From sequence record AY753669.1: a stretch of DNA of 7,644 nt; one strand, 5' to 3'. Origin of the DNA: Escherichia phage D6. The notes beneath the pieces were generated by a model. That model did no database searches, was not told the origin of the DNA, and saw only the letters and a program-made list of their open reading frames with translations. The translations under genes were made by a program, and so were the position numbers. Below, in pieces: positions 6 through 7,644 of the stretch; position 1 is the stretch's first letter; each line of letters begins with the position of its first letter.

Positions 6-263
6 ATGACCACCAGGGGGATGAGGGTTAGATTTCGCTGGAAAGCAGAGCAAGTAACGCCATTCAGAGAGCCATCAATGCCGCTGCAGGTTGAGCAGGA
101 TTATCTATGTTTACCAGAAATAGATGGAGGAATGCTGGTGGAGTCTGATGGTAGTAAGGCTGATTTTGAAGCCAATTTGAAGCTGGCACAGGCCGTAATC
201 AATAGTTATCGCGGAAAGTGGATCGCAAAAGTGAAACATGTTGTTCGTTTGTCTCGCTGGTAG
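6..263 (+). CDS. hypothetical protein, probably the 3' end of a gene that starts upstream of the window
   Basis: 85-codon ORF in the supplied track; the frame stays open to the window edge (no in-frame stop upstream of the ATG at 6), so the true start may lie outside. No motif recognised. Confidence 0.35.
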   Translation: MTTRGMRVRFRWKAEQVTPFREPSMPLQVEQDYLCLPEIDGGMLVESDGSKADFEANLKLAQAVINSYRGKWIAKVKHVVRLSRW

Positions 264-279
264 CATTAGGTATTTAATA

Positions 280-295
280 TTAATTTTCTAATACA
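280..295 (+). promoter_or_regulatory. copy 1 of a recurring 16-bp AT-rich motif (TTAATTTTCTAATACA); candidate repressor operator upstream of the 130-aa ORF
   Basis: Seen in sequence: 14/16 identical to the copy at 6123..6138 and 13/16 to the copy at 4713..4728, all in the same orientation and all in intergenic DNA just outside gene ends. Operator function is inference. Confidence 0.4.
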
Positions 296-371
296 ATCAT
301 CTTTTTACCAGTCTATACAGTTTTAACATTCTCATTATCATCCCCTCGGTCATTTCCTGCCCGGGGGATTA

Positions 372-764
372 ATGGAACAAATCAGCAGCGCAGAAATTGC
401 GGATATCATGATCAGGGCTGACTGCTATCTGACAGTCACTGAAATTACCACTCTCGCCAAAGAAAAATACCCTCATCTCCATGTTTCACGAGTAAGTGTA
501 ACTAACATCATTCGTCATTTTGTTCGTTCAAGCAGGGCAATCTGTGAGCTGGATGATCGTGTGTATCCACGAAAATACTGGCTACATGGTCTGAACGGAT
601 ATCAGTTCAAGGTGCGCGGGCGCACGCCTGAATACGGTAGCTTACTGGTTAAAAACTGTAGCAGGAAATCAGTCGAACAGGCGCGAAAAGAGCAACGAGA
701 GCTGGTGGACATGGCGAATAAGCTGTGGAATGCCGCCGTTAAAAAGCGTGGTGTTGCTTTATGA
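372..764 (+). CDS. hypothetical small basic protein, translationally coupled to pacA; positional counterpart of the P1 late-promoter activator gene lpa (unverified)
   Basis: 130-codon ORF; GGGGGA Shine-Dalgarno-like sequence 5 nt upstream of the ATG; its TGA stop (762..764) overlaps the pacA ATG (761..763) as ATGA. The lpa suggestion rests only on my recollection of P1 gene order, not on sequence similarity. Confidence 0.6.
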   Translation: MEQISSAEIADIMIRADCYLTVTEITTLAKEKYPHLHVSRVSVTNIIRHFVRSSRAICELDDRVYPRKYWLHGLNGYQFKVRGRTPEYGSLLVKNCSRKSVEQARKEQRELVDMANKLWNAAVKKRGVAL

Positions 765-2125
765 GTCTGGTTAATTGGGAGGAGCACCGCGCCCGCTTTA
801 TAGCGTTGCGTGAAGAAAAAGGGATCACTGTAAAGGAATACTGTGAGGAGCATGGCCTTAGCTTCAATACAGCCAGAAAGCATCTCAATATGAAAAAAAA
901 TGAGGTGCGGTCGCAGGTAAAGACAACAAAAAAAAGCACCAAATCACCTGAAAAAAAACGGGCGGGAAGAGCAACAAAAAAGCTGGAAGAGGGTGCAGAA
1001 AAAACAAAATTTACAGAAATTGACAATTCGCAGGGTGCAGGTTCTTTCCGAAGTATGCCAAGAAAGAAAACTTCGGATCATGAAAGTAATACCAATAATA
1101 ACAATGAGATAAAAGAATCTGTCAGGAGATCATTGCGCGAAAAAATGGCGAAAATGATCCCCGAAGAAGATAAAAGCGCCCCAAAAATTGAGGGATCTTC
1201 AGCAATGATCCCTGGCGGTGCTGTGCAGCGTGCCACATTGCCCACTACGAATGTGGCTCGCGATATGATGAAGAACGGCGCAGAAGAACACCTGCGGTTA
1301 GCAATTCAAATGGCGCAAGAGCGCGCACTTCAGTATCAAAGCATTGTTGATCAGGAGGCCGAACGTCTACAGGCGGAAATAGACGCCTTGGGCGATAAAG
1401 AGCCAGAAGGAATGCACCCTGGGCAGCGCCTTCTCGGTCTAATCAGTGACGCGGCCTACTACATGAATGATTTTATCAGTAGGTTGGCAGCTATATATCA
1501 GTCCGAACAAAAGCTGCGACAGGGGGATGAAAAGCTTCGTCAGAGCGCTCGCCAGCAAGCATTCAAAGAGGCTGAGGCCAGAGAAAAACTCGAATTAGCA
1601 CGCCTACAGGCCGAACAGCGTGGCAAAGAGATTGAATATCGCATTGGCGCTGACGCACGCGCTGCCAGAGTTATCGCCGCCGCTATACGTATGCGTGAGC
1701 GCGAGGAACTGGATGATATCGGTGTTGCTGAATACATCGAGCGCCAGGGGGTCAGCGTCCCGGCTATCCTCGCGGCGCGCGCGGCGAAAGCTATCACTCT
1801 TCTCGAACCACCTGTTTCTGACGTCAATGATGTTGATGATGAACAGCTGGACAAAGAGGCGAGGGAGTTTGCGACGCTTCAGGCTAACCATCCGCAATGG
1901 CTGGCAGAGCGCCGGGCGGATGTGGCAACCATTGTTGAAGAATTGGGGTGCGGAGATTACGACCGCAATGGCGAGCGTAAAGCTGGAGAATTCGAGGCCA
2001 ACGACGAAGAGCTGGATATTGACCCTTCGGCAACGGCTGATATTTACGGTGATTATGATGCATCTGATGCAGGGTATGACGCCGGAGATGATGATATCGC
2101 GATAGAACCGCCGGAGGATGATTAA
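761..2125 (+). CDS. pacA: terminase small subunit / pac-site recognition protein (PacA-like)
   Basis: 454-codon ORF immediately upstream of and overlapping (TAATG) the large-terminase gene. N-terminus (MSLVNWEEHRARFIALREEKGITVKEYCEEHGLSFNTARKHL) looks like a helix-turn-helix DNA-binding domain, followed by a Lys-rich low-complexity linker and a strongly acidic C-terminal tail (..DDDIAIEPPEDD), as expected for a small terminase. Contains a GATC-hexamer cluster (see 1075..1211). The P1 pacA assignment is by synteny and domain logic. Confidence 0.7.
   Translation: MSLVNWEEHRARFIALREEKGITVKEYCEEHGLSFNTARKHLNMKKNEVRSQVKTTKKSTKSPEKKRAGRATKKLEEGAEKTKFTEIDNSQGAGSFRSMPRKKTSDHESNTNNNNEIKESVRRSLREKMAKMIPEEDKSAPKIEGSSAMIPGGAVQRATLPTTNVARDMMKNGAEEHLRLAIQMAQERALQYQSIVDQEAERLQAEIDALGDKEPEGMHPGQRLLGLISDAAYYMNDFISRLAAIYQSEQKLRQGDEKLRQSARQQAFKEAEAREKLELARLQAEQRGKEIEYRIGADARAARVIAAAIRMREREELDDIGVAEYIERQGVSVPAILAARAAKAITLLEPPVSDVNDVDDEQLDKEAREFATLQANHPQWLAERRADVATIVEELGCGDYDRNGERKAGEFEANDEELDIDPSATADIYGDYDASDAGYDAGDDDIAIEPPEDD
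1075..1211. other. candidate pac (packaging cleavage) site: cluster of five GATC-containing hexamers inside the 5' third of pacA
   Basis: Seen in sequence: GATC at 1076, 1128, 1156, 1194 and 1207, i.e. five in about 135 bp, where chance predicts well under one. Hexamers read TGATCC (1155..1160 and 1206..1211 on top; 1075..1080 on bottom), TGATCT (1127..1132 bottom) and AGATCC (1193..1198 bottom). Established knowledge: the P1 pac site lies inside pacA and consists of repeated Dam-methylatable TGATCA/G hexamers flanking the cleavage point. Assignment here is by analogy. Confidence 0.35.
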
Positions 2126-3633
2126 TGGCTGGAGGGCGCAAGATTAAATGCGTCACCAGCGATCCACGCTGGCGCGATATGGTAATCAAATACCGCTACA
2201 ACTTTACCCAAGCTGTTGTCGATATTTTTGGGATGTTCCCCTCCCACCAGCAGCAGCAGATCATTCAGTCCGTGCAGGAAACGGGGAGTAGGACGACCGT
2301 CACGTCCGGACACGGAACGGGGAAGTCGTCCCTTACCGCGATGTTGCTGTTGATTTTCATGATCCTGTTCCCCGATGCCCGTGTCATCATTGTTGCTAAC
2401 AAGATAGGCCAGGTAAAAACAGGCGTATTCAAATACGTTAAACAGTATTGGGCGAATGCAGTTAAGCGTCATGGGTGGTTGCAGACCTATTTTGTCCTCT
2501 CTGACACCATGTTTTATGAGCGCTCCCGTAAGGGGATTTGGGAAGTTCTCTGCAAAGGTTATCGACTCGGCAACGAAGAAGCGCTGGCGGGGGAACACGC
2601 GGCACATTTGCTTCTAATTCTGGATGAAGCATCTGGTATATCTGATAAGGCGATCGGCGTAATGACCGGTGCTCTTACTGAAGAAGATAACCGGATGTTG
2701 ATGCTATCCCAGCCAACAAGGCCAAGTGGTTATTTCTACGATTCGCACCATTCTCAAGCAAAAACCCCAGACAACCCGAAAGGGATCTGGACAGCAATTG
2801 TTCTTAACTCGGAAGAATCACCGTTCGTCACACCACAATTCATCAAGCAGAAGCTTCTGGAATATGGCGGGCGCGATTCTATTGAGTACATGGTCAAGGT
2901 GCTTGGTCAGTTCCCACGAGAAATTAACGGCTATTTGCTTGGTCGTGATGAATGCGATCGCGCTGCTCGCCGCAAGGTGTTGTTGGAGAAAAACTGGGGA
3001 TGGGTGGCAACGGCTGACGTTGGTAATGGGCGAGATAAGTCGGTCCTCAACATCTGCAAGGTATCAGGTCACAGGGATAAGCGGCGCGTTGTTAACTTTA
3101 AGGTAATGGAGATGTCTGGCACTATGGACCCATTGGCCTTTGCTGACTTCATATATAACGAATGTACGCCGGAAAAATACCCGAATATAACAATCGCGGT
3201 TGATGCTGATGGTTTTGGTTCTGATACGTGTGCGCAGTTGGTGCGTCGTGGTGCGAACCCGGTACGTATTCGGTGGGGAAAACCCATGTTTGCGAACAAA
3301 GACAGGGAGCGATTTGTTAATCAGCGTGCCTACGCAAATATTATGGCGCGTGATGCCATAAAGTCAGGGCGTATGCGGATAGACAGTGACCCTAAAACGG
3401 CAGAGCAAGCGTCAAAAATCCCCTTTTTACTGAATGAAGAAGGGAAAATGGCGATGATGCGCAAAGAGCACATGCGGCAAAAGCTAAACATCAAATCGCC
3501 TGACCGATGGGATACCTACTGCTTCACTATGCTGGTGGACTATGTGCCTGCTAATGAAGATATTGGTGCCGAAATGGCAACTTTCCGAGATCAGGTTCTG
3601 GCGGATATCGAAATGCCGGATCTGGATATATAA
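2125..3633 (+). CDS. pacB: terminase large subunit (PacB-like; ATPase plus nuclease)
   Basis: 502-codon ORF. Walker A-like P-loop (VTSGHGTGKSSL) and Walker B-like hydrophobic stretch ending in DE (LLLILDEASG) in the N-terminal half; acidic nuclease-type segments in the C-terminal half (IAVDADGFGSD). Start overlaps the pacA stop (TAATG). Confidence 0.85.
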   Translation: MAGGRKIKCVTSDPRWRDMVIKYRYNFTQAVVDIFGMFPSHQQQQIIQSVQETGSRTTVTSGHGTGKSSLTAMLLLIFMILFPDARVIIVANKIGQVKTGVFKYVKQYWANAVKRHGWLQTYFVLSDTMFYERSRKGIWEVLCKGYRLGNEEALAGEHAAHLLLILDEASGISDKAIGVMTGALTEEDNRMLMLSQPTRPSGYFYDSHHSQAKTPDNPKGIWTAIVLNSEESPFVTPQFIKQKLLEYGGRDSIEYMVKVLGQFPREINGYLLGRDECDRAARRKVLLEKNWGWVATADVGNGRDKSVLNICKVSGHRDKRRVVNFKVMEMSGTMDPLAFADFIYNECTPEKYPNITIAVDADGFGSDTCAQLVRRGANPVRIRWGKPMFANKDRERFVNQRAYANIMARDAIKSGRMRIDSDPKTAEQASKIPFLLNEEGKMAMMRKEHMRQKLNIKSPDRWDTYCFTMLVDYVPANEDIGAEMATFRDQVLADIEMPDLDI

Positions 3634-3634
3634 A

Positions 3635-3651
3635 GCCCCGCGATGCGGGGC
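3635..3651. terminator. hairpin between the convergent pacB and 345-aa genes; possible bidirectional intrinsic terminator
   Basis: Perfect 7-bp stem GCCCCGC / GCGGGGC with a 3-nt loop (GAT), directly after the pacB stop and directly after the stop of the - strand gene (3661). There is a T/A-rich run on the - strand side (TTATATAT) but no clean U-tract on the + side. Confidence 0.45.
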
Positions 3652-3660
3652 CGGTTGTGA

Positions 3661-4698
3661 TTACCAGAGCTTCGCGGCGTACTGCGTTTGGGGGAATGTG
3701 TATCCGTAACGTTCTTCGATTGCTTTGCCGTATTTTTTACGAGCTTCATTCAGTTTAATGCCGGTCAGGTCGTCTCCAGAGGCCATCATTACGTCTAACA
3801 ATTCCAGATCCATTTTATCCAGCCTTGCCATTGCTTCACGTGATGTACGTATCTTACGCTCAATGATATGGCGAATAGCCGGATCGGCATCCTCCAGCAT
3901 CTTAGCGGATTTCTGCTTAAGGCTTTCATTGCGAATATCGATGTTCCTTAAGATGTACGACTTCGCAACGTAGCTTGGCTGGTGTTTTTCCAGGTCACGA
4001 ACACGATATAAGTTAAAATCGCCGAGAAGGCTGCAAGGTACCGATTCGACGCCAGAATAAATTGTAATGCTCCGGCGTTCACCAACATTATTGACAACGG
4101 GGATCGTTGTCTTCGGTAGTCTTGCGAAAACCAATGCGCCATGTGCGCCAACTCTAAAGCGAGAAAGGGCATTGCTGCCTTCGATGTTTGTTGTCAGCAC
4201 AACATCTGTATATGCCTCTTTACGCGCCCGGTAGATCTCGCCTTCAGGCTCAGCTTCAAAGAAGCGCTGTTCTTCTTCAAGAGCACCTACGATTTGAGAA
4301 AAAACCCTATTTTTCAGGCTTTTCTTTATGATTTTGTCGTATTTTTTTAGCAATTGTTCACGTGTAAATGTACGTGTTGTTGTAGCGCTTTGCACAACGA
4401 CATGCGTGCTTTGATTGGTGTCCTCAATGATGAATGGGATCGGAGAATATACAGACTCAACAATGTTCGACGCTTTGCCGTCGGCATCGCGGCACATGTC
4501 AACGAAGGCTTTCCATTCAGCAAGACATTTTTCAGCTTCTTCTAATATGTTTTGGTCATGCGTTAATGCAACATGGCGGAATTCCTCGCCAGCATAACTG
4601 GTATCATGGAAAACAGAGTTTGCGACCACCAGCTCTTTCCACCGTTCAGCGGTTTGCAGGAACCGTTTGTACTCTTTCTCGATCGACTTCTTACTCAT
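3661..4698 (-). CDS. c1: 345-aa protein at the immC position; putative C1-type immunity repressor by synteny (function unverified)
   Basis: Long - strand ORF convergent with pacB and divergent from the recombinase; AGGA Shine-Dalgarno-like sequence a few nt upstream of the ATG. In P1 the gene between pacB and loxP-cre is c1. I see no motif that proves repressor function, so CDS existence is about 0.85 and the C1 identity about 0.4. Confidence 0.55.
   Translation of the reverse strand: MSKKSIEKEYKRFLQTAERWKELVVANSVFHDTSYAGEEFRHVALTHDQNILEEAEKCLAEWKAFVDMCRDADGKASNIVESVYSPIPFIIEDTNQSTHVVVQSATTTRTFTREQLLKKYDKIIKKSLKNRVFSQIVGALEEEQRFFEAEPEGEIYRARKEAYTDVVLTTNIEGSNALSRFRVGAHGALVFARLPKTTIPVVNNVGERRSITIYSGVESVPCSLLGDFNLYRVRDLEKHQPSYVAKSYILRNIDIRNESLKQKSAKMLEDADPAIRHIIERKIRTSREAMARLDKMDLELLDVMMASGDDLTGIKLNEARKKYGKAIEERYGYTFPQTQYAAKLW
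3807..3885. repeat. 79-bp GATC-bounded segment inside the 345-aa gene that recurs in inverted orientation at 7309..7387 and 7566..7644
   Basis: Seen in sequence: the reverse complement of 3807..3885 is identical, base for base, to 7309..7387. It begins and ends with GATC. Confidence 0.9.
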
Positions 4699-4712
4699 TA
4701 TTCCTACTCGAT

Positions 4713-4728
4713 TTAGTTTTCTAACATA
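4713..4728 (+). promoter_or_regulatory. copy 2 of the 16-bp motif (TTAGTTTTCTAACATA); candidate operator in the leader of the 345-aa gene
   Basis: 13/16 identical to the copies at 280..295 and 6123..6138; lies 15 to 30 bp upstream of the - strand gene start. Confidence 0.4.
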
Positions 4729-4797
4729 AAATTACTATGACAAATTTATGTCGAATAACAGAGTGAGTAAAGGATCGAACTGTGATTTTTTGTCATC

Positions 4798-4813
4798 AAT
4801 TTTAGAAAACCAA
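4798..4813 (-). promoter_or_regulatory. copy 3 of the 16-bp motif, weaker and inverted (reads TTGGTTTTCTAAAATT on the - strand)
   Basis: Shares the TTTTCTAA core; 13/16 to the degenerate consensus TTA[AG][TA]TTTCTAA[CT]A[CT]A; about 70 bp from copy 2 in the same intergenic region. Confidence 0.3.
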
Positions 4814-4908
4814 CCGTAGAAACCACACTTCGCTAATTAAAGACCATGAAGGCAACGTGTTACTGGTCATCATCAATCTATGATGGATTAAAAAAAATCG
4901 GCATTTTA

Positions 4909-4940
4909 TAACTTTAAATAATTGGCATTATTTAAAGTTA
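4909..4940. other. rox: rox site: 32-bp recombination target of Dre (14-bp perfect inverted arms around a 4-bp asymmetric spacer)
   Basis: Seen in sequence: TAACTTTAAATAAT-TGGC-ATTATTTAAAGTTA. This is the exact reverse complement of the rox site as I recall it (TAACTTTAAATAATGCCAATTATTTAAAGTTA). Including the flanking A at 4908, one arm matches the loxP arm ATAACTTCGTATA at 10/13 positions. It lies about 150 bp upstream of the recombinase gene. Confidence 0.85.
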
Positions 4941-4949
4941 GGCTATAAT
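4922..4949 (+). promoter_or_regulatory. candidate sigma70 promoter reading toward the recombinase gene, overlapping rox
   Basis: -35 TTGGCA (4922..4927, spanning the rox spacer), 16-bp spacer, perfect -10 TATAAT (4944..4949). Established knowledge: P1 cre has multiple promoters in the loxP-proximal region. Activity is not demonstrated. Confidence 0.4.
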
Positions 4950-5092
4950 CATGTGTAGATGAACAGTATTGACATCACTGAAAATACGTACCTCCAATCA
5001 AAGGCTTGTATTTTGAAAATTAACTTATAGCTACCCTGTCATTTTTATATTTTTCGCGTAGCGTCATCTGTATATAGAGGTGAAATGGTTTC

Positions 5093-6121
5093 ATGAGTGA
5101 ATTAATTATCTCTGGCAGTTCCGGTGGTTTTCTGCGCAACATTGGCAAAGAGTACCAGGAAGCCGCAGAAAACTTTATGCGGTTCATGAATGATCAGGGT
5201 GCTTATGCGCCGAATACTCTGCGCGACCTCCGGTTGGTGTTTCATTCCTGGGCGCGCTGGTGTCACGCTCGCCAGCTTGCCTGGTTTCCGATCTCACCAG
5301 AAATGGCCCGCGAGTATTTTCTTCAGTTGCATGATGCCGATCTGGCTTCGACCACCATTGATAAGCACTACGCCATGCTTAACATGCTGCTTTCTCATTG
5401 TGGCCTTCCGCCACTTTCGGATGATAAAAGTGTTTCTCTGGCTATGCGGCGTATCCGGCGCGAAGCGGCAACGGAAAAAGGCGAACGAACAGGCCAGGCT
5501 ATACCGCTGCGATGGGACGACCTGAAACTGCTCGACGTCCTGTTGTCCAGGTCAGAACGGCTGGTGGACCTGCGCAACCGGGCTTTTCTCTTTGTTGCAT
5601 ACAATACGCTGATGCGTATGTCGGAAATCTCGCGTATTCGTGTAGGAGATCTGGACCAAACAGGTGACACTGTCACGCTACATATTTCACACACGAAGAC
5701 AATAACGACCGCCGCCGGGCTTGATAAGGTGCTTTCCCGTCGCACTACTGCTGTGCTGAATGACTGGCTGGATGTTTCCGGGCTTCGTGAACATCCTGAC
5801 GCGGTGCTGTTCCCGCCGATACACCGTAGCAATAAGGCCAGGATTACGACAACGCCCCTTACTGCACCTGCAATGGAGAAAATATTCAGCGACGCCTGGG
5901 TGTTGCTGAATAAAAGGGATGCCACGCCAAACAAAGGGAGATACCGGACGTGGACCGGGCATAGTGCTCGTGTCGGGGCCGCTATCGATATGGCTGAAAA
6001 GCAGGTGTCTATGGTGGAGATTATGCAGGAAGGAACCTGGAAGAAACCGGAAACACTTATGCGGTATCTGCGCCGTGGCGGTGTGTCTGTGGGGGCTAAT
6101 AGCCGCTTGATGGATTCATAA
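5093..6121 (+). CDS. dre: Dre, a Cre-family tyrosine site-specific recombinase (rox-specific)
   Basis: 342-codon ORF, GAGGTG Shine-Dalgarno-like sequence about 9 nt upstream. Clear Cre-like sequence throughout (e.g. SVSLAMRRIRRE, RNRAFLFVAYNTLMRMSEISRIRVGDL, TGHSARVGAAIDMA, EIMQEGTWKKPETLMRYLRR), with the Cre catalytic Arg, His-x-x-Arg, Trp and Tyr positions conserved. The N-terminus MSELIISGSS and the adjacent exact rox site identify it as Dre rather than Cre. Confidence 0.9.
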   Translation: MSELIISGSSGGFLRNIGKEYQEAAENFMRFMNDQGAYAPNTLRDLRLVFHSWARWCHARQLAWFPISPEMAREYFLQLHDADLASTTIDKHYAMLNMLLSHCGLPPLSDDKSVSLAMRRIRREAATEKGERTGQAIPLRWDDLKLLDVLLSRSERLVDLRNRAFLFVAYNTLMRMSEISRIRVGDLDQTGDTVTLHISHTKTITTAAGLDKVLSRRTTAVLNDWLDVSGLREHPDAVLFPPIHRSNKARITTTPLTAPAMEKIFSDAWVLLNKRDATPNKGRYRTWTGHSARVGAAIDMAEKQVSMVEIMQEGTWKKPETLMRYLRRGGVSVGANSRLMDS

Positions 6122-6122
6122 A

Positions 6123-6138
6123 TTAAATTTCTAACACA
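6123..6138 (+). promoter_or_regulatory. copy 4 of the 16-bp motif (TTAAATTTCTAACACA); candidate operator between dre and the downstream operon
   Basis: Begins 2 bp after the dre stop codon, about 55 bp upstream of the next ORF; 14/16 identical to copy 1. Confidence 0.4.
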
Positions 6139-6194
6139 TCTTTTTAGATTGATATCTTTGCTGTAAAGTACCCTCGCCTATTTTGGAGGGTGCT

Positions 6195-7012: not shown

Positions 7013-7455
7013 TTTACGTAAAAGTGAAACGCCTACATCCGGCAGCAAAACTTCCAGCTTATGCCACCTCCGGATCGGCGGCGATGGATTTTGAGGCTGT
7101 TGAAATAAAACCATGTGTCGATAGCAATGGTGCAATTTCCTCAAGCTGGTGGGTGTACACCGGATTGGCTATGGAGATCCCGCCCGGCTGGTGTCTGAAA
7201 CTCTATCCGCGATCCGGATTGGGCTGCAAAAAACATACTCGCCTGGCTAACTGCGTAGGAATTATCGACTCCGATTATCGCGGCGAAATCATGGCAAAAC
7301 TGATTACTGATCCGGCTATTCGCCATATCATTGAGCGTAAGATACGTACATCACGTGAAGCAATGGCAAGGCTGGATAAAATGGATCTGCAATTTCCTCA
7401 AGCTGGTGGGTGTACACCGGATTGGCTATGGAGATCCCGCCCGGCTGGTGTCTGA
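7009..7455 (+). CDS. dut: dUTPase-family gene (trimeric dUTPase motifs I-III) whose 3' part is replaced or disrupted after codon 100
   Basis: N-terminal 100 aa carry dUTPase hallmarks: ..LPAYATSGSAAMDF.. (motif I region), YPRSGLG (motif II), GIIDSDYRGE (motif III). Motifs IV and V are absent. From 7309 the reading frame runs into the inverted 79-bp copy of the 345-aa gene fragment (reading DPAIRHIIERKIRTSREAMARLDKMDL) and then into an out-of-frame second copy of dut sequence, ending at 7455. The 148-aa ORF as drawn is therefore chimeric; it may be a pseudogene or an artefact. Confidence 0.55.
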   Translation: MIYVKVKRLHPAAKLPAYATSGSAAMDFEAVEIKPCVDSNGAISSSWWVYTGLAMEIPPGWCLKLYPRSGLGCKKHTRLANCVGIIDSDYRGEIMAKLITDPAIRHIIERKIRTSREAMARLDKMDLQFPQAGGCTPDWLWRSRPAGV

Positions 7456-7644
7456 AACTCTATCCGCGATCCGGATTGGGCTGCAAAAAACATACTCGCC
7501 TGGCTAACTGCGTAGGAATTATCGACTCCGATTATCGCGGCGAAATCATGGCAAAACTGATTACTGATCCGGCTATTCGCCATATCATTGAGCGTAAGAT
7601 ACGTACATCACGTGAAGCAATGGCAAGGCTGGATAAAATGGATC
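7131..7644. repeat. perfect tandem direct duplication, 2 x 257 bp (7131..7387 and 7388..7644), ending exactly at the window edge
   Basis: Seen in sequence: the two copies are identical base for base. Each copy is 178 bp of dut coding sequence plus the 79-bp inverted fragment of the 345-aa gene. The identical antisense 61-aa ORFs at 7141..7326 and 7398..7583 in the track are a by-product. Confidence 0.9.
7309..7387. repeat. inverted copy of 3807..3885 (79 bp, GATC-bounded); a second identical copy lies at 7566..7644
   Basis: Exact reverse-complement identity to 3807..3885, verified by hand. Confidence 0.9.

Follow-up and report, generated by a model that had tools for sequence, protein, structure and literature searches.

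We analyzed a 7,644-nt stretch (the window) of Escherichia phage D6, the source of the Dre/rox recombination tool. The window corresponds to the D6 record MF356679.1, a 91,159-bp circular plasmid prophage, in reverse complement, and it spans the origin of that record within rox; all coordinates below are those of the window, on the + strand as shown, unless the D6 record or a relative is named. From left to right, it carries the late-promoter activator gene lpa with pacA and pacB, the c1 gene for a 345-aa repressor of the C1 family on the opposite strand, rox, and dre, which is followed by orf117, orf116, and dut. Between these genes recurs an AT-rich 16-bp motif, which the original prediction took to be a candidate operator of the immunity repressor. 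Our analysis indicates that this motif is very probably the operator of the D6 C1-type immunity repressor, dispersed in the genome.

Three strong copies of the motif lie at 280-295, 4713-4728, and 6123-6138, all on the + strand and exactly where the original prediction had placed them, and recomputation gives the same mutual identity of 13 to 14 of 16 positions. A weaker inverted copy, said to lie on the - strand at 4798-4813, is also present, with its TTTTCTAA core at 4802-4809. In agreement with the earlier description, every one of these copies sits just outside a gene boundary: one before lpa-pacA-pacB, two in the c1 leader, and one after dre. Specifically, the lpa copy has the same orientation as lpa, with 76 nt separating the end of the site from the lpa ATG, and the copy downstream of dre begins 2 nt past the dre stop codon, 56 nt ahead of the TTG start of the next operon. 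In addition, we identified a fifth, weak copy on the - strand (259-278), absent from the original prediction, whose placement follows the fixed geometry seen at other paired sites. The consensus of the strong copies finds three matches in the window at three or fewer mismatches, compared with 0.11 expected, and none of 200 shuffles reaches three. The GenBank record of D6 annotates no binding sites, and a full-text literature search for the motif or for D6 operators returned nothing relevant, which leaves room for an earlier publication of the D6 consensus.

Enrichment and conservation of the motif

A genome-wide motif search had been suggested as a check. Run on the whole D6 genome, it reveals that the motif is hugely enriched in intergenic DNA relative to composition-matched sequence. 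With two or fewer mismatches, 11 of the 12 matches fall in the intergenic 10.5% of the genome, compared with chance expectations, under second-order Markov nulls, of 0.07 per genome and 0.03 per intergenic-like sequence. The same signal appears when no seed is used: TTTTCTAACA is the commonest 10-mer of D6 intergenic DNA, with nine copies in 9.5 kb, compared with a single copy in the 8.6-fold larger coding DNA (81.6 kb). When over-represented words are ranked without any annotation, Chi comes first in D6 and TTTCTAACA next. As a positive control, the same word statistic applied to P1 ranks Chi first and then ATTGCTCTAAT, which is the experimentally established C1 operator.

To describe the full site, we scanned the D6 genome with a position weight matrix (PWM) of 20 positions (consensus aTTAaTTTTCTAACACAaat). 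This matrix returns 13 sites at 20 bits or more (0.01 expected), 16 at 12 bits or more, and 22 at 8 bits or more, with 18 of these 22 being intergenic in a genome that is 89.5% coding. The operator consensus, a-TTA(A/G)TTTTCTAACA(C/T)A-aat, is asymmetric and spans about 17 to 20 bp, and no internal dyad symmetry was found in the motif. Altogether, these counts confirm that the recurrence of the motif is real, both in the window and in the genome.

The motif is also conserved. A repressor of the D6 type is encoded in 149 plasmid records. Sites that match the D6 matrix occupy equivalent places in the plasmids L010, L007, and L006 (C1 identity of 80%, 70%, and 68%, respectively) and in the metagenomic contigs L013 (51%) and L014 (44%). 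In alignments of the three window regions, the motif forms conserved blocks amid diverging spacers; the lpa copy is kept in L010 and L007, and the copy downstream of dre is kept in all three plasmids. Furthermore, in each of the lineages examined, the c1 leader itself contains the motif.

With strong divergence of the repressor, the motif itself changes. The C1 protein of the Leclercia plasmid NZ_CP042508 is about 28% identical to that of D6, and the D6 matrix finds no sites on this plasmid. Its top over-represented word after Chi is ATTCTAAGG, and its motif, GATTCTAAGG, has sites in three places: the c1 leader, the pro-repL interval, and a position 24 nt ahead of ref. In Pantoea CP009882, another variant, CACAnAnTTCTAAA, occurs in the c1 leader and immediately past the recombinase gene, the latter place matching that of the D6 copy after dre; this assignment is tentative and involves few sites in 27 kb. 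The dispersed motif thus changes together with the repressor while the TCTAA core and the places are kept. This correlation is the best computational link between the protein and the site.

The P1 C1 regulon as a counterpart

The 345-aa protein shares 21% identity with P1 C1 over 240 aa (BLASTP, E = 2e-8), and both proteins match phrog_1678 (E = 3e-170 for D6 C1 and 3e-140 for P1 C1). Homologues of D6 C1 carry the precomputed Pfam assignment PF27008, Phage_P7_repressor_C1; a search of a local Pfam copy with the 345-aa protein gave no match. In contrast to P1 C1, D6 C1 is 62 aa longer and has a C-terminal helical extension that the P1 protein lacks. This extension, of about 60 to 70 aa (3661-3870, - strand), is present in D6-type C1 proteins including those of Leclercia and Pantoea, and it may be linked to the different geometry of the paired sites.

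For P1, C1 is described as a repressor with 22 operators spread over the genome, whose asymmetric consensus is ATTGCTCTAATAAATTT, and with repL and lpa among the genes that it controls (PMC8546580). In the P1 record, 20 monovalent C1 operators are annotated, including Oc1a-e, Olpa, OrepL, Orlf, Oref, Odmt, OpmgRa/b, OpmgT, Omat, and Oc4. Both sources bear out what the original prediction stated about P1 C1, namely that it recognizes asymmetric 17-bp operators dispersed over the genome, lpa and c1 included.

The D6 sites resemble this P1/P7 regulon (immC) in that a homologous repressor is paired with about 20 asymmetric sites over a plasmid-prophage genome of about 90 kb. Specifically, D6 sites adjoin c1 (two sites), lpa, ref, hrdC-dcm-dmt, and mat/simB; they adjoin repL on both sides, upstream and immediately downstream; and they are found at pmgR/pmgS and downstream of pmgS, upstream of both icd-antirepressor modules, and upstream of the operon that ends with isaA. 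The sites at c1, lpa, ref, repL (both sides), hrdC-dmt, pmgR/S, mat, and icd-ant have P1/P7 equivalents, and single as well as paired sites occur in both systems. In addition, the TCTAA core is common to both, with the same orientation relative to lpa, where Olpa of P1 ends 70 nt before the gene start, compared with 76 nt for the D6 site.

The two systems differ, however, in what is recognized and in how the sites are arranged. When the consensus sequences are aligned on the TCTAA core, only about 10 of 17 positions agree. P1-type sites (three or fewer mismatches to ATTGCTCTAATAAATTT) number zero in D6 compared with 17 in P1, and the D6 PWM has no matches on the P1 genome. Since there is no P1-type site in D6 and no D6-type site in P1, the two specificities are distinct. 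The bivalent operators of P1 consist of overlapping inverted 17-mers, CTAA-N8-TTAG (Obanab and Oc1ab), whereas D6 pairs have the form TTAG-N18-CTAA. The D6 c1 leader is also short (226 bp to rox), with two sites rather than the five of P1, and it is without annotated coi and imc genes.

Altogether, the D6 system appears to be the expected counterpart of the P1 C1 operators, with its own specificity and a different paired-site geometry, and is as such confirmatory rather than surprising. The site map defines the likely immunity regulon of D6 and predicts that D6 and P1 are heteroimmune. Together with the operator consensus, this map is now available for D6-like phage-plasmids, which are common in E. 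coli, Salmonella, and Shigella, and P1, D6, Leclercia, and Pantoea offer a natural repressor-operator series for the evolution of asymmetric-site specificity.

The mycobacteriophages L5 and L1 provide a second comparison, as one repressor there binds about 30 asymmetric "stoperators," some of which lie inside or between the genes of an operon (PMC1934351). In D6, the sites that follow repL, pmgS, and dre and those in the pmgR-pmgS interval belong to that kind. However, the L5/L1 repressor belongs to a protein family unrelated to D6 C1, and many D6 sites stand in inverted pairs. Stoperators of the L5 type also have a single orientation relative to transcription, whereas the orientation of the D6 sites is mixed (about nine sense and six antisense).

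Table 1. Genes, motif copies, putative promoters, and late-promoter boxes discussed in the text
Feature	Position	Strand	Remarks
lpa, late-promoter activator	372-764	+	PF25716 BPP1_LPA, E = 5e-57; target gene of the first copy
pacA	761-2125		
pacB	2125-3633		
c1, 345-aa C1-family repressor, presumed binding protein	3661-4698	-	GenBank: "prophage repressor, similar to P1 C1"
rox	4909-4940		
dre	5093-6121		followed by orf117, orf116, dut
Strong operator copy, lpa	279-298	+	16-mer 280-295, TTAATTTTCTAATACA; PWM 26.0 bits
Weak left arm, lpa	259-278	-	3.3 bits; abuts the strong copy
Strong operator copy, c1 leader	4712-4731	+	16-mer 4713-4728, TTAGTTTTCTAACATA; 28.1 bits
Weak distal operator copy, c1 leader	4795-4814	-	16-mer 4798-4813, TTGGTTTTCTAAAATT; 9.3 bits
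Strong operator copy, dre / orf117-orf116-dut-isaA operon	6122-6141	+	16-mer 6123-6138, TTAAATTTCTAACACA; 26.9 bits
Putative c1 promoter	4743-4771	-	TTTACT, 17 nt, TAAATT; hexamers invariant in four aligned leaders
Putative orf117-operon promoter	6141-6169	+	TTTTTA, 17 nt, TAAAGT; conserved hexamers
AAATCACA copies, probable late-promoter box	D6 record 19215, 25234, 27740, 38128, 45504, 54137, 54192, 67406, 72113		

Paired sites, the c1 leader, and the proposed repression

In the c1 leader, the strong copy is antisense to c1, with 14 nt between its end and the c1 ATG. It follows closely on the putative c1 promoter and forms an invariant block of the leader alignment. The weak copy has the sense of c1 and lies 23 nt upstream of the putative -35. 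The same two-site organization, with a strong antisense site 19 to 25 nt before the ATG and a weaker c1-sense site upstream, is found in six lineages, and the spacing between the sites is 83 to 84 bp in five of them and 96 bp in the other. Taken alone, the weak copy is marginal, as 0.024 matches of its score (9.3 bits) are expected per 226-bp leader. We accept it as a real, if predicted, secondary operator site because four diverged leaders share an unchanged TTTTCTAA core within an otherwise diverged stretch, and because its counterpart in L014 is a better match (14.3 bits).

The promoter hexamers for c1 and orf117 were taken from alignment conservation. The invariant TTTACT-17-TAAATT between the two c1-leader sites would be the c1 promoter, and the strong site would cover about +5 to +24 of this putative promoter. 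In the orf117 region, TGTAAAGTAC and CTTTTT are invariant in four sequences, and the site downstream of dre abuts the putative -35 of orf117.

Roughly one in two strong sites is abutted by an inverted 20-mer partner at an offset of exactly 0, which gives the TTAG-N18-CTAA arrangement. Clear pairs are found at hrdC (25 and 28 bits) and pdcB (12.5 and 26.8 bits). At lpa, the weak arm also stands at the exact offset of 0, and its score, low as it is, lies above the 99.9th percentile of the genome background; its orthologue in L010 reaches 12.1 bits, and the TTAG is invariant in the alignment of the lpa region.

We infer the binding of the repressor to these sites and its mode of repression at each of them, along with the promoter assignments. 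As long as D6 is a prophage, its 345-aa C1 homologue would occupy about 16 to 20 sites around the 91-kb plasmid genome and would thereby keep the following early and regulatory units switched off: lpa-pacAB, repL, ref, hrdC-dcm-dmt, the two icd-antirepressor modules, pmgR/pmgS, pdcB, and the orf117-dut-isaA operon. Through lpa, this silencing would indirectly extend to all late genes. C1 would regulate its own gene through the two inverted sites that flank the putative c1 promoter, the strong one just past the -10 and the weak one about 84 bp upstream. Sites occur either singly or as inverted pairs of fixed geometry, composed of a strong and a weaker arm. The mixed orientation relative to transcription fits recognition on DNA rather than RNA, and we rejected an RNA-level or terminator element given this mixed orientation and the lack of dyad symmetry.

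That the motif is an operator of the immunity repressor, as originally proposed, is thus supported by its enrichment, by its P1-orthologous places, by the homology of the protein to C1, and by its change with the repressor. Several observations weigh against this interpretation. A scan for consensus promoters called none for c1 or orf117. The most promoter-like sequence at lpa (314-341) is found 18 nt past the site without overlapping it, and therefore classical occlusion is not evident there. The geometry of the paired sites is unlike that of P1, the pairs of the D6 lineage being abutting and of opposite polarity to the overlapping CTAA-N8-TTAG. Not all matches are intergenic, as an 18.5-bit site falls within pmgM and coding DNA holds a few weak PWM matches. 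The 345-aa protein reaches 25 bits against the NCBIfam C1 equivalog model, compared with a cut-off of 500, and for this reason we regard it as a distant member of the C1 family and not as an equivalog. Finally, what ties the motif to this protein in particular is homology, position, and co-divergence.

This last point leaves some room, albeit little, for a different protein at the sites, such as another D6 regulator (Cro/Coi-like, helix-turn-helix), a co-repressor, or a host factor. Several further small proteins of D6 are predicted to bind DNA, many other D6 proteins have no known function, and co-divergence with C1 would be expected for any lineage-specific phage regulator. Yet the places match the experimentally defined C1 operators of P1, the TCTAA core is common to the P1 operator, and the motif is always found in the c1 leader, all of which make such a binder unlikely; a host factor, moreover, fails to explain motifs that are lineage-specific and mutually exclusive.

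Even less probable is that the motif is a promoter element, either a component of Lpa-dependent late promoters or, at early promoters, a core or UP element. It is AT-rich and located upstream of genes, and at several P1 promoters the -35-like TTGCTC comes from the operator itself. However, the late genes of D6 carry a different box, AAATCACA, a second dispersed motif that occurs on the gene-sense strand upstream of prt, ddrB, R, pmgB/sit, g23, g7, mat, and lysozyme, at 42 to 62 bp from the late-gene starts (149 bp for mat). This box is probably the Lpa-dependent late-promoter box of D6, the counterpart of the P1 -22 box AAGTGACTT, which also differs from the operator motif; a late-promoter element was rejected on both grounds. 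The TTTTCTAACA sites, in contrast, stand at early and regulatory genes in both orientations, and several of them lie 9 to 14 nt from a start codon or just 3' of a gene, so that they have no fixed promoter position. The copy of the late-box word at 4781-4788, within the c1 leader, shows no conservation in relatives and is probably there by chance.

Chance recurrence of an AT-rich word in AT-rich spacers, to which the somewhat higher AT content of intergenic DNA (56%) and the marginal score of the weak c1-leader copy might point, was rejected as having next to no probability, as the motif exceeds expectation more than 100-fold under second-order Markov and dinucleotide-preserving nulls and its sites are kept at orthologous places in diverged relatives.

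A possible Tus-like fold of C1 and other features

Beyond the C1 operator assignment, the only unexpected element is a possible Tus-like fold of the repressor. No solved structure with sequence similarity to D6 or P1 C1 was found. We used an AlphaFold2 model of D6 C1, built from eight sequences and of medium confidence (mean predicted local distance difference test score of 79; predicted template modeling score of 0.54). Compared with the PDB by Foldseek, this model matches only E. coli Tus bound to Ter DNA, in four entries (E = 4e-6 to 3e-4, probability 1.00, about 312 aligned columns), with template modeling scores of merely 0.26 to 0.29; the next match follows at E = 0.08. Sequence and profile comparisons of D6 C1 with Tus were negative, the Tus profile being of low power as the Tus homologues retrieved for it were all at least 81% identical. 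A viral structure library gave no match for the model, not even to a model of a C1 protein.

Tus is a monomer that clamps an asymmetric site, a mode that would fit the asymmetric C1 operators. It is possible, although we do not consider it the likelier case, that C1 repressors of the P1/D6 kind are monomeric two-domain clamps of the Tus fold that read an asymmetric site of about 20 bp, with lineage-specific flanks around the TCTAA core setting immunity specificity; the extra C-terminal helical domain would then possibly serve the paired architecture of D6. Such a clamp would explain operators that are both asymmetric and dispersed. To this, the paired architecture of D6 adds two sites about eight helical turns apart around the putative c1 promoter. 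The two systems differ, however, in that D6 C1 has no sequence or profile similarity to Tus and in that C1 acts in transcriptional repression, whereas Tus arrests replication forks. If the fold relationship were true, operator-bound C1 might also be a polar barrier to replication or transcription.

Several further features were observed in the window. Immediately ahead of the lpa ATG stands a conserved GC-rich hairpin, CCCCTCGG...CCGGGGG (342-368). Both of its arms are invariant in three lineages, and its 3' arm contains the lpa ribosome-binding site GGGGGA; the hairpin may control the translation of lpa. A near-consensus sigma-70 promoter, TTGGCA-16-TATAAT (11 of 12 positions; 4922-4949), overlaps rox and reads toward dre. 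The last 514 bases of the window (7131-7644) are an exact tandem duplication of 257 bp (7131-7387 and 7388-7644). In each of the two copies, a segment of dut that agrees with the D6 record up to 7313 is fused to a segment of about 80 bp (75 bp and a short overlap at the junction), the reverse complement of c1 positions 3806-3880. Neither the dut-c1 junction nor the duplication is present in the GenBank record of D6, and the structure looks like an assembly chimera or a rearranged variant.

Other repeats were found outside the window. Chi, GCTGGTGG, is the most over-represented word in D6, P1, L007, L010, and the Leclercia plasmid, with 86 copies in the last compared with 7.3 expected. The Leclercia plasmid also has a repeated word, ACTGTATGAC, with seven copies compared with 0.13 expected, and in the Leclercia plasmid L008, GTGATCAC repeats cluster near 17037-17081. 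In D6, iteron-like repeats, TTGAGGGCAA(a/t)nTCTTACA, lie around a repA-like gene, five upstream and four downstream (D6 record 45709-45817 and 46593-46888), an arrangement that resembles incC and incA of P1.

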